A stretch of 64,000 bases of DNA. Source: Escherichia phage PA45. Positions 39,001 to 45,000 of the stretch are shown here, piece after piece. Made by a program: the position numbers. Every line of letters begins with the position of its first letter. The first letter of the stretch is position 1. Where the stretch lies: the sequence record KP682389. One strand, written 5' to 3'.

Positions 39001-42000
39001 TAGCAGGAAAAGAAATCGTGCTTCCGTATGACAAAGATGATGAGGAGTGCGTTCATATCATCCGTATCTCTGACGATAATCATGAGCTTTTTGTCGGTCG
39101 GGATGTGGATATCAGCTCCGGACGCTCCCTGCGATTTGCCTGTTCTCCCGGTGAGGTGAGCGTGCTTTATGCCGTCGCTCCGAAAGCCGGACGCAGCCAG
39201 ATACCGGATGAACTCCTCACATGGCCTGAAGAAGTGGCTGCGGGGGCACTTGAGCGGTTGTTCATGCAGACTGGTGTTTCATGGTCAGATCCGTTACGCG
39301 CACAGTATTTTTCTGTGCAGTTTTCTGAGGGGATCCGTCGGGCATATCGTCATACACTGGCGACAAGCCCGTACTCTTCATACCGCAACCCTGTACGCAG
39401 GCAGAGGTTTTTCTGATGACGACGATTACAGAAATCATCGGACGTGTGAATACACAACTGGTTGACCCGATGATGGTTCGCTGGCCCCTGCAGGAATTGT
39501 GCGATTATTACAATGATGCTGTGAGGGCAGTGATTCTGGCGAGACCGGATGCTGGCGCAAGCCTGGAAACAATAAGTTGTGTTCCTGGCGCCCGTCAGGT
39601 TTTGCCCGATGGTGTAATACAACTTCTTGACGTGATATGCCTCAGTGACGGTAGTGCAGTCAGACCATTATCCCGGGAGGTGCTGGATGCGCAGTATCCT
39701 GAGTGGCCCACAATGAAGGGTATTCCTGAATGTTTTATCAGCAACGACCTGTCCCCGCGCGTATTCTGGCTGTTTCCTGCTCCTGACAAAGAGATAAGTA
39801 TTGATGCAGTGGTAAGCCGGATACCGGAGGCAGTGTATGTTCTGACGCAGGACGATGATACGCCAGTTCCACTGGAAGAGGCTTATGTTAACCCACTGGT
39901 GGAGTGGATGTTGTTTCGCGCTTTCAGTAAGGATGCTGCCGGTGGCGCAGAATCGGGGCTGGCTGCGCAGCATTATCAGAGTTTTGTTGAGCAACTTGGG
40001 ATCAAACAGGGGGCAGACAGTGCATTGTATGCCCGTAAAAAAGTGTTTAACGGAGGTGGAGTGTGAGTGTTGTTGTTTCGGGGACGCTGAAATCTCCTGA
40101 TGGTGAGGCGATATCAGGAGCAAATATTACCCTGACGGCGCTGACAGTTTCACCGGATGCGCTCAGCGGCACCAGTGCGTCGGCAGTGACCCGTGAAGGT
40201 GGATATTACGGAATGACGATGGATCCGGGGGAGTATGCGGTTTCGGTGACGGTGAAAGGGAAGACTGCTGTCTACGGACGTGTGCGTATTGAGGGGACCG
40301 AAAGTACGGTGACGCTCAATATGCTGTTACGCCGCAGTCTTGTTGAGGTTAGCATACCCGGAGAACTGCTGACAGATTTCCGGCAGATACAGAATAATGT
40401 GGCTGATGACCTTGCCACTATTCGTCGCCTGAATGAAGACACGGCGACAAAAAACACTCAGGCCACACAGTCAAAAGAAAGTGCAGCAGCCAGTGCGAAG
40501 AGTGCATCTGACAGTGCAAAGACGGCAACCAGCAGGGCGGCTGAAGCCGGACAAAAAGCGACTGATGCCACTGAGGCTGCGACCCGTGCAGTCACAGCAG
40601 CGGGGAATGCAGAGGAAAGCTCGACCCGTGCCGGAGAGTCTGAAAAAGCCGCCGGAGCTGATGCAGAAAAAGCCAGACAGCATGCTGAAAAGGCCAGGCT
40701 GGCGCAGGAGAGCGCCGGAGAGATCCTTAAGCGGGCAGAGGCTGCCACTGTCAGTGCTGAAGAGGCCAGACGTATGGCTGAGAATGCACGGGGGCCCCGG
40801 GGGCCTCAGGGAGAAACTGGTCCGAAGGGGGATGTCGGTCCTAAAGGCGAAACAGGTCCAGTGGGCCCTCAAGGGCCCGCAGGGCCGAAAGGTGAGCGTG
40901 GTGACGTTGGTGCTCAGGGGGCTGTAGGGCCTGCTGGTCCGCGTGGTGAGAAGGGCGAACAGGGGGAGCGAGGACCGCAGGGAATACCAGGCCTGAAGGG
41001 GGATACCGGAGAGCGGGGGCCTAAAGGGGACCAGGGGGATATGGGGCCAAAAGGCGAGAAAGGTGATCCGGGAGGTCCTGCAGGCCCGCAAGGTCCTAAA
41101 GGCGAACGAGGAGAAGCCGGACCACAGGGACCGATGGGAGCACGAGGTGAGCGTGGGGAGACTGGCCCCCGAGGTGAACCTGGTCCTGCAGGTCCGAGAG
41201 GCGAACGAGGAGAGACCGGACCTCAGGGACCTCGTGGAGAGCCAGGTCCGGCAGGCAGCGCTGCAAATGTGGCTGATGCAACGACGGCACAGAAGGGAAT
41301 TGTGCAGTTAAGCAGCGCAACGGACAGTGATGATGAAACGAAGGCTGCCACCCCGAAAGCGGTGAAAGCGGCAATGGATGTGGCAAATGAAGCGAAAACA
41401 AAGGCAGAAGAGGCTGCAGCAGGAGGTGGTGTTCCCGGTCCGAAAGGAGATAAAGGGGACACGGGGCCAGCAGGTCCGGCTGGGCCGAAGGGTGATAAGG
41501 GAGAGCGCGGTGACACCGGCCCTGTCGGGGCAACCGGCGAACGGGGACCGGCAGGTGATGCTGGTCCGGCAGGCCCGCAGGGGCCGAAAGGTGACAGGGG
41601 AGAGCGGGGAGAGACCGGTCTGACGGGAAATGCAGGTCCACAGGGTCCAAAGGGAGATACCGGTGCGGCAGGCCCGGCAGGCCCACAGGGACCGAAAGGA
41701 GAAACAGGTGCGGCAGGCCCGGTGGGGGCGACCGGACCTCAGGGGCCGAAGGGCGACCCGGGGGAGACGCAAATACGGTTCCGTCTGGGGCCGGGAAACA
41801 TTATTGAGACAAACAGCCATGGCTGGTTCCCGGATACAGATGGCGCACTCATCACCGGACTGACCTTTCTTGACCCCAAAGATGCCACACGGGTTCAGGG
41901 TTTTTTTCAGCATTTGCAGGTCAGGTTTGGTGACGGGCCGTGGCAGGATGTCAAGGGGCTGGATGAAGTGGGCAGTGATACAGGCAGAACAGGAGAATGA

Positions 42001-45000
42001 CATGAATATTTTGAGAAAGCTTATGCAGAGTCTGTGCGGTTGCGGAAAGCATGATGACTGTGAAAACGGGCAGTCGCTTACAGCACAACTGCGACTGGGA
42101 CCGGCAGACATTCTGGAGTCAGATGAGAATGGCATTATTCCGGAGCAGGACAGGGTAATCACACAGGTGGTGATACTGGATGCAGATAAAAAGCAGATAC
42201 AGTGTGTGGTAAGACCGCTGCAAATCCTGCGTGCTGACGGGACGTGGGAAAATATTGGCGGGATGAAATAGCCGACAGCTTCACAAAAACCGGAGCCCGG
42301 CTCCGGTTTTTGTTGTCATGTATAGGGGGGGGTTATTAGAGAGTGAAGTAATAAACATGTTAATACGATGGAGTGAAGGATGCCGTGTAATTCTGGTTCA
42401 AGAGTTTTTTATGCCGGAAAATCGCAGGATTATTCTGGATAGTAAAGAATCCTGGTTAATAATCTGTGATAGTCAGTTGGGCCATTTAATGCGCAGTATG
42501 TATCAGGGACGCCGTTTTATTCAGCTGAATCTGGAAAAATTGAAAGGGGTACATGATGTCGCCTTGCCAGTGAAATGGGAATTCACACGAAGACAGTGAA
42601 TAGCTTTCTGTATACGGGAATGGCGAAAAATGGACTGTATGGTGTGAGTGTGAAACATCTTGCGTGTGCGGAGTGATGCTTCTCGTTGCTACAGCGGCAA
42701 TGATAATGCAGTGAAAAAAGGGGAGCAATATGCTCCCCCAAACCGAAAGAAAATTGCAATAATCAATGAAGTTATTTAGTCATCATCAGAATGTCATGCA
42801 AGGCATTTTGTTTCAGTGATGCCGATCGCGATTTTAGCGAATTCCATCATAAATCCCCTGATTTTTAAGCCTGAAGCAGTCAAAGGAATTTCTATGCCCT
42901 ATATCGATATCACCACGATGCGTGGGATGATGCCGCGCGTTGTGACATCCATGCTGCCCGAGCATTCCGCTGTACTGGCGGAGGACTGCCATTTCCGGTT
43001 TGGTGTTATTACACCAGAACGTCAGATATCCGGGGTTGAGAAAACATTCACAATTAAGCCAAAAACAATTTTTCATTACCGTGACGATTTCTGGTTTGCA
43101 TGGCCGGATGTGGTGGATGTGATCCGCAGTCCGATCGCTCAGGACCCCCACGGGCGTATTTACTACACTGACGGGCGTTTTCCTAAAGTGACGGATGCGA
43201 CTATTGCCACAAAAGGGGACGGGAATCACCCGACATCATCGTATCGTCTGGGGATCCCCGCGCCGACGACAGCTCCTGTCTGTACTGTTCAGCAGGGCGG
43301 TGATGTTTCTGACGATAACCCGAATGATGATGAAACCCGGTTTTATACGGAAACCTTTGTCTCAGATTATGGTGAAGAAGGTCCGCCAGGTCCGGCGTCT
43401 CTGGAGGTAACACTCCGTACTCCGGGAACTGCGGTACAACTGACGCTGGCTCCGGTGCCATTGCAGAATGCCAGTATTAAACGTCGCCGGATTTATCGCT
43501 CTGCATCAGGTGGAGGGGAGGCGGATTTTTTACTTGTGGCTGAACTGGATGCATCCGTGCTCAGTTACACGGACAAAATACCGGCGAAAAACCTTGGGCC
43601 TTCCCTGGCGACATGGGATTACCTGCCGCCGCCAGAGAATATGACAGGCCTTTGCCTGATGGCTAACGGTATTGCCGCCGGGTTTGCCGGTAATGAAGTG
43701 ATGTTTTCGGAAGCGTATCTGCCGTATGCATGGCCGGAAGTGAATCGTCACACGACGGCAGAAGATATTGTAGCTATCTGTCCGCTGGGAACGTCACTGG
43801 TGGTGGCGACAAAGGGGGAGCCTTATTTGTTCAGTGGGGTATCACCGTCCACAATTTCTGGTTCCAAAATCCCTTCAATGCAGGCGTGTCTGAGCAGGCG
43901 GAGTATGGTTGCGATGGAGGGTTTTGTGCTGTATGCAGGAACAAATGGCCTGGTGTCTGTTGATGCAAACGGTAATGTCGCGCTGGCGACGGAACAGATT
44001 GTTTCACCGGAACAGTGGCAGAGTCAGTTTAATCCGGCCTCCATTGTGGCTTATCCCTGGCGTGGTGAATACATTGCCTGTTACACGAAACCGGATGGTA
44101 AGCAGGATGTGTTTGTATTCAGTCCGGTGAACATGGATATCCGTTATCTCAGTACACCGTTTGACTGCGCATGGGTTGATCTCGCGAAAGATATGATGCG
44201 CGTGGTGACAGGAGACAAAATGTCAGTGCTTGCCGGGGGGGCTCTGCCCTCCACGATAAGGTGGCATTCAAAAATTTTTTCATTACCTGAAAGAACCTCT
44301 TTTTCCTGTATCAGGGTGAAATCTCCGGCGCCTGAGCGGGTGGGGATCACCATTATGGCTGATGATGTTCCTGTGATTCATTTTGCGCCGGGTACGTTTA
44401 AGGGAAGTGTGGTGAGACTTCCGGCAGCAACCGGGCAAAACTGGCAGGTGATGGTATCCGGATTCGGGCAGGTGGAACGAATAACCCTGAGTACATCAAT
44501 GTCGGAGATGCCGGTATGACCAGAAAACCGTGGCGTGCGGGGAAGGATTTATCCACTGTTGTGGAGAATATGGAAATTGGCACCGGGCAGCGTGGTGACG
44601 GACGTCACGCATTTGTGACCCGTGAGGAACTGGTTGGTCTTAAACTCGCCCGGCGTCGAACATCGGGTGGTGCCTCATATGCACTGAATCCGGGTATTGA
44701 GATTGACAGTACTTTAATGACTGTTGATTTTCCCACAAAACCGCTGAATTTTAAGGCGACCGGTGGATTTGGCTCGGTTCTTCTTGAATGGGATATGCCT
44801 AATTATCGCGGACATTCACTGACTGAAATCTGGCGGGGTACGGAGGATGACCTTGCTGATGCAGTGCTGGTTGCCACGACGCCGGGGCAGGTTTACGGCG
44901 ATCCGGTTGACCCTGGCTGGTCGGGATTTTACTGGATACGTTTTGTTAACGCGGCAGGAGTGAAAGGTCCATGGAATGCTGAAAAAGGCACTCAGGCACA

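Follow-up and report, generated by a model that had tools for sequence, protein, structure and literature searches.

Among the closest described systems is Z1483, named EPclB by Ghosh et al. (2012), a protein of 645 aa whose PCoil spans 109 aa and whose two collagen blocks measure 157 and 114 aa (PMC3368898). The PfC domain of EPclA was found by SEC-MALLS and CD to trimerise and to re-nucleate the collagen helix (PMC3368898). The fibre gene is essential, and immuno-EM has located its protein at the tail (PMC5155283); cryo-EM has revealed six fibre trimers per virion, with fibre residues 1-141 modelled in the adaptor-bound state (bioRxiv 10.64898/2026.04.10.717836). The fibre and its duplicated C-terminal module are already in Pfam, PHROGs and three papers; the original prediction of a 'collagen-like tail fibre' with a 'duplicated C-terminal module' was correct and had already been published. 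Mondal et al. (2016) had drawn attention to the duplication and suggested that it was a "reservoir" of tips; in the EPcl/Sp5 fibre papers, the downstream 89-aa gene is dealt with in just one paragraph of that work. Deletion of this gene (Sp5 ORF68) left plaque formation and lysogenisation intact, making it non-essential (Mondal 2016).

The window analysed here, a stretch of 64,000 nucleotides from Escherichia phage PA45 (KP682389), is a 933W/Sp5-type Stx prophage, and its segment 40063-42000 encodes the lateral tail fibre, a homotrimer. The fibre region consists of the following features:

39416..40066, + strand: tail adaptor protein, docking ring for the fibre N-terminus (Pfam SU10_adaptor, 4.6e-31)
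40063..42000, + strand: lateral (side) tail fibre gene, 645 aa (DNA identity, Pfam domains)
40063..40452, + strand: N-terminal beta-sandwich anchor, residues 1-130 (CarboxypepD_reg, 2.5e-08)
40453..40791, + strand: Ala/Ser/Glu-rich alpha-helical trimeric coiled coil, PCoil, residues ~131-243
40792..41262, + strand: collagen block 1, residues 244-400, 32+21 Gly-X-Y triplets (53)
41263..41427, + strand: Phage_fiber_2 knot and short helical linker, residues 401-455 (PF03406, 5.1e-18, residues 407-448)
41428..41769, + strand: collagen block 2, residues 456-569, 38 Gly-X-Y triplets
41544..41554, + strand: 11-nt microhomology GGGACCGGCAG, also at 42097-42107, the junction of a rare natural deletion
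41773..41964, + strand: PfC-A, C-terminal PF06820 knob of the fibre, residues 571-634 (4.9e-35)
41901..41907, + strand: T7 run inside PfC-A, in the stretch of the slippery sequence predicted for AU6Stx1

The 645-aa ORF starts with GTG and its product is 100% identical to 933W L0121; the DNA is likewise 100% identical to that of 933W, VT2-Sakai and others, as is the 933W L0121/L0122 pair (further names of the fibre are ECs1228 (Sp5 ORF67) and phi24B gp61). The gene lies directly 3' of the tail adaptor gene, and the order of anchor, coiled coil, collagen, Phage_fiber_2, collagen and PfC is that of the EPclB/933W type. The adaptor corresponds to phi24B gp62, which is bound by the N-terminal domains of gp61 (bioRxiv 10.64898/2026.04.10.717836). 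Over the N-terminal 240 aa, identity to phi24B gp61 is 99.6%, and this stretch recurs at ⩾99% identity in 165 of the 186 phage records that matched; the phage_tail_N match in the anchor is weak and below the Pfam cut-off. The beta-sandwich docks the fibre on the adaptor ring, and the coiled coil, the two collagen triple-helix segments and the Phage_fiber_2 knot make up a long flexible shaft. In the cryo-EM structure the coiled coil starts at residue ~100 (bioRxiv 10.64898/2026.04.10.717836); a 21-nt tandem repeat (40480-40522) lies inside the PCoil segment.

The two long Gly-X-Y blocks that had been claimed at 40790-41256 and 41425-41766 are indeed present within a few bases of these positions, and the collagen family is recognised with high significance (PF01391, 4.2e-43), Pro being the commonest X residue. 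The register of block 1 is broken once, by Gly-Gly at residues 337-338, and a direct repeat with 99-nt spacing at 41072/41171 within it corresponds to the 'aba'' repeat annotated in AP005153. By sequence, the knot region matches residues 107-154 of protein S of the phage Mu tail fibre (5yvq/8ju3). The repeat region had also been described as GC-rich with many overlapping ORFs, and this description holds: GC is 0.60-0.70 over 40.55-41.9 kb against 0.51-0.54 in the flanks, and at least six long ORFs in other frames or on the other strand overlap the repeats. Such spurious ORFs were entered as CDS in one old GenBank record.

From the profile searches, it is clear that the same domain ends the fibre and makes up most of the next small protein. 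The 64-position HMM of PF06820 (Phage_fiber_C; gathering cut-off 25 bits) matches both at full length, with 120.1 bits in the fibre and 123.3 bits in the small protein (residues 28-89); in the fibre, an 11-aa tail after the knob reaches the stop codon at 41998-42000. Pairwise alignment, which had been suggested as the check that could overturn the proposed paralogy of the last ~60 fibre residues, gave with BLASTP a significant match between fibre residues 572-633 and small-protein residues 29-88 (21/62 identical, 34%; 61% positives; E=2e-10 as a single-comparison value). Together with the full-length PF06820 matches, this similarity is far beyond chance and bears the paralogy out. Since the EPclA knob is near-identical to the fibre knob of the window, the latter (knob A) would be expected to trimerise, to set the register of the collagen helix and to form the distal tip. 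At the DNA level, knob A and its counterpart in the small gene (knob B) are 54% identical, and exact matches between them reach 7 nt at most. In a divergent lineage, L009, B is 52% identical to the window B and 33-34% to either A, and A is 40% identical to the window A and 33% to the window B. The duplication is therefore old, and the small gene, judged from these comparisons, is an old paralogue of the fibre knob that carries a 27-aa leader in place of the shaft. The predicted monomer structure of B is poor (AF2, pLDDT 55), with a short helix at residues 3-11 followed by disorder, and thus lends no structural support to any mechanism for B.

The small gene and its signals, on the same strand as the fibre, are as follows:

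41991..41995, + strand: Shine-Dalgarno AGGAG, 6 nt upstream of the PfC-B ATG
42002..42271, + strand: small PfC-B gene, 89 aa (PF06820, 5.1e-36; phrog_576, full length)
42283..42318, + strand: intrinsic terminator ending the fibre cassette, a perfect 15-nt inverted repeat and then a T tract

PfC-B (also L0122, Z1484, ECs1229 and Sp5 ORF68) consists of the leader, residues 1-27 (42002-42082), and the PF06820 domain, residues 28-89 (42083-42268). A 133-aa version with a TTG start (41870-42271) was rejected, being the same frame read upstream of the true ATG at 42002. The fibre stop codon TGA (41998-42000) precedes this ATG by 1 nt. In every homologous locus, L009 included, the ATG is kept and GGAG or AGGAGG is found at the same position. 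The terminator fold is strong (−24.8 kcal/mol, z=−5.6; equalled by 0 of 200 shuffles), and the hairpin is kept in homologous loci, with another loop and a shorter stem in L009. PfC-B is thus translated on its own; no promoter of its own was found, and the 1-nt spacing makes it probable that its translation is coupled to that of the fibre gene.

In addition to these signals, we have checked the selection acting on PfC-B. For most pairs the dN/dS of the domain is 0.03-0.12 (5-10 synonymous versus 1-4 non-synonymous changes per pair), with one outlier of 0.24 on very few substitutions, and that of the leader is 0.2-0.4, with one outlier of 0.80, again on very few substitutions. Constraint on knob A is weaker than on knob B (dN/dS ~0.2). 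As judged from these ratios, PfC-B is under strong purifying selection. It is also paired with the fibre knob about 1:1 in ~700 of the 5,426 complete E. coli genomes: B DNA occurs in 698 of them (6,795 places, median 11) and A-knob DNA in 697 (6,158 places, median 10). Among phages, B is found in 295 records, both short-tailed and long-tailed, the latter including phages 434 and VT1-Sakai. These data bear on whether B could be a non-functional leftover from a tandem duplication of the fibre 3' end. Such a reading would suit a non-essential gene of which broken copies exist, namely the frameshifted or IS-disrupted ones of phages PA28 and 06-3462 (natural IS3-family insertions) and a C. rodentium copy with a damaged leader. 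However, thousands of intact 89-aa copies are known from cluster sizes, the dN/dS values are far under 1, and the arrangement persists in L009 at 52% identity and behind another type of fibre shaft. Selection and synteny thus largely refute a leftover origin, which we regard as hardly credible.

A conserved gene that is dispensable on laboratory K-12 might instead act outside the virion, as a cell-protective, superinfection-related or other moron-like factor comparable to Cor in Stx2-86. Its position would fit, since B lies just upstream of a strong terminator and adjoins accessory cargo, which in the long-tailed phages comprises type III secretion effector genes and in the window is an AT-rich island; the neighbouring slot of Stx2-86 holds Cor, and B is dispensable for phage growth. 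The protein itself argues otherwise. B has no signal peptide, and although its leader MNILRKLMQSLCGC contains a conserved lipobox-like L-x-G-C, this is preceded by the charged, non-hydrophobic KKLMQRL, so that export is unlikely; the hydrophobic core of at least seven residues expected of a Cor/Llp lipoprotein is absent from the leader. The lack of its own promoter, the apparent translational coupling to a late gene and a single domain that is the fibre knob also speak against a role outside the virion, which we consider very unlikely.

B is present in virions in trace amounts. In purified phi24B virions, two unique B peptides with 3 spectra each were found against 2,267 spectra for the fibre, and the B signal per residue is ~2% of that of the fibre. 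Such a level is typical of low-efficiency recoding and may suggest that a +1 frameshift or stop-codon bypass yields a minor fibre variant carrying knob B. This reading underlies the AU6Stx1 annotation 'atfT, alternate tail fiber tip', and it is also the basis on which the phi24B proteomics database lists a 735-aa 'Fusion_6159_FS1'. B does lie in the +1 frame, and the 46 codons ahead of the B ATG are open in that frame; the L009 B is likewise in the +1 frame. AGGAG stands just ahead of a GAA-TGA-C stop context, and we infer the T7 run to be the +1 slippery site predicted for AU6Stx1, whose record gives no site. Conservation, however, is lacking: the T7 run, present in 933W-type loci, is GGGGCTGTTTC in phage 434, E. 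albertii and a further locus (L013), and the L009 B frame closes one codon 5' of the ATG. A shift at T7 would leave knob A with only its first two-thirds, followed by 31 unrelated residues; going by the known prfB mechanism, tRNA-Glu on GAA would be unable to re-pair on AAU, and a prfB-like slip is therefore not expected at the stop codon. Mondal et al. detected no signal for frameshifting, the junction peptide TGEDMNILR was not found in the examined part of the phi24B proteome data, and the fusion entry outscored gp61 only in a near-bottom, low-mass gel slice (EA1829), which hints weakly at B migrating as a free protein of ~10 kDa. We therefore give frameshifting little credence.

In contrast to recoding, recombination could bring knob B onto the fibre if B were a stored alternative knob, occasionally grafted to change specificity, as in the reservoir proposal of Mondal et al. 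(2016). Some natural rearrangements agree with this: an in-frame fusion of collagen block 2 to PfC-B exists (P0063/L005), formed by a 553-bp deletion across GGGACCGGCAG, as does a hybrid in which the B leader is joined to the tail of knob A (P0121), and collagen fibres with unrelated C-terminal domains indicate that tips are exchanged over evolutionary time. Yet the low A/B nucleotide identity and the 7-nt longest match provide no substrate for homologous exchange. The fusion was encountered once, where a draft contig ends; in the 5,426 complete genomes, judged by the five listed matches with 100% cover and identity, all of which are two-piece (unfused), no copy was seen. No full-length fibre ending in an L0122-type knob occurs among the 120 listed of 171 matches, nor among 85 matches in 1.84 billion representatives. 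A silent cassette would need neither the conserved ribosome-binding site, start and leader nor the low dN/dS of the domain. An invertible cassette of the Gin/Cin type is not indicated either, both PfC modules being on the + strand and the terminator hairpin being the sole inverted repeat in 39900-43000. A reservoir of spare tips is accordingly unlikely. The original prediction of a swappable, putatively receptor-binding tip stands in an evolutionary sense only, while the evidence on A/B identity, inverted repeats, the frameshift site and the draft-contig fusion gives little support to swapping within the genome. Module exchange between phages was seen for phage 434 and Stx2-86. In the long-tailed phage 434, the side fibre has the distal cassette (collagen block 2, knob and small gene) at 96-100% aa identity but on a different N-terminal anchor; from residue 474 on, the last 172 aa match this EPclA-type fibre at 96% identity. 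In the sister phage Stx2-86, this slot is taken by a different tip together with a Gp38-type adhesin. The unit moving between phages would be the whole distal cassette of collagen block 2, knob A, knob B and terminator.

Taken together, the locus as a whole would be a trimeric collagen fibre with a separately translated knob paralogue as a trans-acting tip partner, a reading that we hold to be somewhat better than an even chance. For B itself, a functional trans-acting partner of the fibre tip is most likely: it would aid the folding or assembly of the knob or collagen end, or sit loosely on the tip. The chaperone alternative of the original prediction would fit better than a within-genome tip swap, since B has its own ribosome-binding site, strong purifying selection and kept synteny; the pairing with the fibre knob, the non-conserved frameshift signal and the missing A/B DNA homology also make a separate partner likelier than a spare cassette. 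Against it, B resembles no known tail-fibre chaperone or adhesin: PF06820 is its sole Pfam match, NCBIfam gave none, and neither Tfa, Mu U or Caudo_TAP (Pfam, NCBIfam) nor Gp38_N (Pfam) is found in the 89-aa protein. The phage 434 record labels B 'tail fiber assembly chaperone', which, given the lack of a chaperone-family match, appears to be based on position only. That recombinant EPclA needs no B to fold and trimerise in E. coli (PMC3368898) also speaks against a partner role, as do the dispensability of Sp5 ORF68 and the natural IS3-family insertions in B, and A and B alleles reassort freely (phage 434, B identical and A 91%; AU6Stx1, A 97% and B 91%), giving no sign of co-evolving interfaces. 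New here are the Shine-Dalgarno and terminator of B, its purifying selection, the ~1:1 pairing and the position kept at 52% identity, as well as the absence of conservation in the proposed +1 frameshift signal and of DNA homology between the A and B copies.

Compared with known systems, the window fibre is the same protein as EPclB, with no difference. PfC resembles the T4 fibritin foldon and the collagen NC1/C-propeptide in being a small C-terminal trimerising domain that nucleates triple-helix refolding, with no sequence or confident structural relation to them. Mu (S/U, S'/U'; Gin) and P1 (Cin) also have two alternative C-terminal fibre modules side by side, but the window has neither an invertase nor flanking inverted repeats, and no switch mechanism is detectable. 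As in lambda Stf and Tfa, the side fibre of the window combines an N-terminus of the phage_tail_N type with a Phage_fiber_2 repeat, and its gene is followed by a small gene and the end of the late-gene cassette; in the window, however, the shaft is collagen, the tip is a PfC knob, and the small gene is a paralogue of that tip rather than a Tfa-family member. T2/S16-type gp37 and gp38, like Stx2-86 gp21 and gp22, again have a separate small protein gene directly after the fibre. Stx2-86 gp21 ends in the Peptidase_S74 intramolecular chaperone domain and gp22 has Gp38_N, whereas L0122 has neither; unlike the gp38-type adhesins, L0122 is a trace virion component whose tip attachment is only putative. 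Stx2-86 has the same podovirus backbone and, in the slot of the window small gene, the Gp38_N adhesin and Cor, while in phage 434 the collagen cassette lies exactly at the place of stf-tfa. B would thus occupy the genomic slot that is held by Tfa in lambda and by the Gp38-type adhesin in Stx2-86.

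The window is a 933W-type Stx2 prophage, and its 2.2-kb fibre region shares 100% DNA identity with phage 933W (AF125520 37965-40173), VT2-Sakai/Sp5 and dozens more Stx phages. The genes concerned are:

39416-40066, SU10-type tail adaptor gene, upstream of the fibre gene
40063-42000, lateral tail fibre gene, 645 aa, GTG start (L0121 = Z1483 = ECs1228)
42002-42271, small gene, 89 aa (L0122 = Z1484 = ECs1229)
42816-44519 and 44516-45784, counterparts of the phi24B nozzle and central needle, downstream, matched by position and size

Z1483 and ECs1228 were named EPclB by Ghosh et al. 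2012, with domain lengths exactly as here (PMC3368898), and the small protein is phrog_576 in PHROGs. The identity and architecture of the fibre are settled. In view of Ghosh 2012, Mondal 2016, the phi24B preprint and the PHROGs entry, the finding is therefore a rediscovery of genes whose identities were already published.

From the translated sequence, it is clear that the fibre carries the two Gly-X-Y blocks of the original prediction, whose coordinates were off by a few bases at most. Block 1 spans residues 244-400 (nt 40792-41262; 32 + 21 triplets with one Gly-Gly register break at 337-338), and block 2 spans residues 456-569 (nt 41428-41769; 38 triplets). The proposed paralogy of the two C-terminal modules was confirmed by pairwise alignment, in which fibre residues 572-633 matched residues 29-88 of the small protein with 34% identity and 61% positives (BLASTP, E=2e-10). 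Both modules, here called knob A (fibre) and knob B (small protein), match PF06820 (Phage_fiber_C, PfC) over the whole model; their scores are 120 and 123 bits, respectively, and the cut-off is 25 bits. The GC profile and ORF map likewise agree with the predicted GC-rich repeats and their many overlapping ORFs: GC is 0.60-0.70 over the repeats versus 0.51-0.54 outside, and long stop-free ORFs, which one early GenBank record entered as CDS, pile up in the remaining frames and on the opposite strand. The original sequence observation thus holds throughout. Within collagen block 1, two 77-nt direct repeats with 99 nt spacing (41072-41247) match the aba' repeat of AP005153, and agree with the 33-aa difference in length between fibre alleles of 645 and 678 aa (Ghosh et al., PMC3368898). 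The fibre gene of phage TL-2011c (NC_019442 3001-5111) is about 173 nt longer than that of the window and has been entered as two CDS (gp56 and gp57), which suggests that its N-terminal part has an insertion or frameshift.

Much is already known about such fibres. EPclA, the sister of EPclB, is a trimeric dumbbell with a collagen part of melting temperature 42 °C; the PfC domain on its own also forms a trimer and allows the triple helix to refold (Ghosh 2012, PMC3368898). In phage Sp5 the fibre, ORF67, is essential, and anti-ORF67 antibodies label the tail; the small gene, ORF68, was noted as an 89-aa phage-fibre C-terminus domain and is non-essential (Mondal et al. 2016, PMC5155283). In the 2026 phi24B cryo-EM preprint (doi 10.64898/2026.04.10.717836), the lateral fibres are six gp61 trimers, with N-terminal beta-sandwiches attached to the adaptor ring, a coiled coil from residue ~100, a flexible collagen shaft (residues 243-567) and a small C-terminal knob, which its authors consider unlikely to be the BamA binder. 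In a 2026 secretome study of EHEC (PMC12962677), Z1483 is among the ten most abundant supernatant proteins of cultures with epithelial cells, and several EPclA paralogues were also detected; this seems better explained by induction of the prophage than by secretion. Downstream, an AT-rich island (42318-42800, GC 0.41-0.45) lies between a plus-strand terminator (42283-42318) and a minus-strand terminator (42739-42719). Its ORF 42318-42599 (phrog_2014) is, by position, probably Sp5 ORF69, deletion of which gives several-fold more plaques and lysogens (PMC5155283).

The small gene has the signals of an independent unit. Its ATG lies one base after the fibre TGA with AGGAG 6 nt upstream, and downstream of the gene there is a perfect 15-bp hairpin (−24.8 kcal/mol, z=−5.6) with a T tract. 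The ribosome-binding site, start codon and terminator are present in all related loci fetched, and the sequence shows a separate gene. By the Nei-Gojobori method over five loci, dN/dS of knob B is 0.03-0.12 in most pairs (for example, 8 synonymous versus 1 non-synonymous) and 0.24 in one pair, that of its leader is 0.2-0.4 in most pairs, with an outlier of 0.80 on four substitutions, and that of fibre knob A is about 0.2. The small gene is clearly kept by selection and moves together with the tip; that it is a dead remnant is exceedingly improbable. In two records, KP682381/NC_041935 (PA28) and OP797663 (06-3462), an IS3-family element sits after codon 52 (window ~42157 equivalent), and these natural knock-outs are consistent with a non-essential B. 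In a 92-aa chimeric protein (P0121), the leader of the small gene is joined to the C-terminal two-thirds of the fibre knob. In the Citrobacter rodentium copy the leader is frameshifted, and this copy has type III secretion effector genes and a truncated remnant of the fibre as neighbours.

Among 5,426 complete E. coli genomes, 698 contain B DNA, at 6,795 places with a median of 11 per genome, and 697 contain knob A DNA, at 6,158 places with a median of 10. Phage records with the small gene number 295, among them those of the long-tailed phages 434 (100% amino acid identity) and VT1-Sakai. The 437-aa side fibre of phage 434 matches the 933W fibre at 96% identity from residue 474 of the latter to its C-terminus, while the N-terminal halves of the two proteins are only distantly related; the exchanged unit is therefore larger than the knob, and it appears to be a mobile cassette of the second collagen block, both knobs (A and B) and the terminator, carried on differing anchors. 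In the more distant lineage of protein P0127 (locus L009), the B copy is 52% identical and the arrangement is unchanged after a fibre without collagen: an A-type terminal knob on that fibre, a ribosome-binding site, a leader with a B-type knob, and a terminator. In this comparison B clusters with B and A with A, and the duplication is old.

When 1.84 billion representative proteins were searched with a profile, 85 matched, none of them a full-length fibre with a B-type knob; the family is tiny and very narrow. One metagenomic representative (P0144, 565 aa) has four tandem PfC-like beads with short Gly-X-Y linkers and then a long collagen block, so the knob fold can also be used as an in-shaft bead. 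A scan of species-representative genomes returned three loci only, with no cross-genus context. Two of these look like contamination or mis-binning. A 725-bp 'Xanthomonas pisi' contig with both knobs at 100% amino acid identity to the window and a 'Clostridiales' MAG contig with a 92% identical fibre knob are most likely such cases, because the assemblies are from unrelated taxa.

Mondal et al. 2016 suggested that ORF68 is an "intragenomic reservoir" for fibre variation (PMC5155283). In one natural protein, P0063, collagen block 2 runs in frame into knob B after fusion through an 11-nt microhomology (41544/42097), which is what such a stored alternative knob would produce; however, this fusion sits at a draft-contig edge, and homologous A/B exchange is not possible, because the DNA of the two knobs is 54% identical and they share no exact stretch longer than 7 nt. 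When complete genomes were probed with 300-nt and 60-nt junction sequences, no one-piece collagen-B fusion was present among the matches listed, and the five at 100% cover and identity were all two-piece. We consider a reservoir role unlikely.

A fibre-B fusion protein made by frameshifting is also conceivable, since the AU6Stx1 GenBank record carries an extended ORF, "atfT, alternate tail fiber tip", with a predicted +1 frameshift; a literature search on both terms found no paper behind this entry. The B frame is open for 46 codons upstream and there is a T7 run at 41901-41907, but the run is missing in phage 434, E. albertii and a further compared locus (L013), the L009 B frame is closed one codon ahead of its ATG, and a slip at the run would destroy knob A. 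Mondal et al. 2016 did not find a frameshift signal for ORF68 (PMC5155283), and recoding seems to us quite improbable.

In phi24B the small-gene homologue lies at HM208303 ~39891-40295, and the part of the supplementary proteome covered holds two peptides specific to its product, ADGTWENIGGMK and VITQVVILDADKK (3 spectra each), beside 2,267 spectra for the fibre. These two peptides show that B is made during lytic growth. The preprint's main text does not mention the small protein, and the peptides are not discussed in the literature. From the spectral counts in that part, B would be at most a trace virion component, roughly 2% of fibre per residue. The proteome database also holds a 735-aa fibre-B fusion entry labelled "Spike or just gp59?". 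In the part of the spreadsheet examined, no junction peptide appears, and the sole gel slice with the fusion entry scoring above gp61 is near the gel bottom, a weak hint of a free ~10 kDa B protein. A function outside the virion is very doubtful.

Structure prediction is, as far as these models go, no help on mechanism. The AlphaFold2 monomer of B (17-row alignment, mean pLDDT 55, pTM 0.34) has a disordered leader and four short strands. Foldseek with this model gave 0 PDB matches at E≤0.001, the phi24B authors likewise reported no fold, and a PDB sequence search with the 89-aa protein found no solved relative (best E=0.82, noise). A lipoprotein reading of the L-x-G-C motif was rejected, as the sequence has no hydrophobic core, and a metal-binding CxC was dropped since the cysteines vary (C14H in AU6Stx1, C12F in P0127).

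Taken together, we lean somewhat towards B being a separately translated and selected partner of the fibre tip, which would help assembly or bind loosely to the tip, and which is dispensable on K-12 (PMC5155283). More tentatively, the free knob paralogue might represent an uncharacterised kind of partner, a detached tip-domain copy acting in trans; it could be a template for folding, cap the PfC trimer so that tails do not clump end to end, or form a second, loosely attached layer of the tip that has a ligand of its own. If true, this would explain how thousands of EHEC collagen-like prophage fibres do without a Tfa-type chaperone. There are about 10 copies of the fibre-end cassette per EHEC genome, and the fibre belongs to phages that spread Shiga toxin genes. 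The phi24B preprint raises the question of the lateral-fibre ligand and its role in reaching O-antigen-covered hosts. The small knob paralogue is the one loose end of some value here, and settling its role would aid understanding and re-engineering of Stx-phage host range.

The original interpretation, a swappable tip or chaperone, is partly supported. A within-genome switch finds little backing, as there is neither A/B DNA homology nor any sign of an invertible segment, which was rejected with neither inverted repeats nor an invertase. Exchange of the tip over evolutionary time, in contrast, is real, as the comparison with phage Stx2-86 (NC_008464 3483-6365) shows. This phage has the same podovirus backbone and fibre anchor, but the C-terminus of its collagen fibre is a Peptidase_S74 intramolecular-chaperone domain instead of the PfC knob, and a Gp38-type (Gp38_N) adhesin and the Cor superinfection-exclusion gene stand in place of the small knob gene. 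The comparison also shows that this slot normally holds a protein working with the fibre tip.
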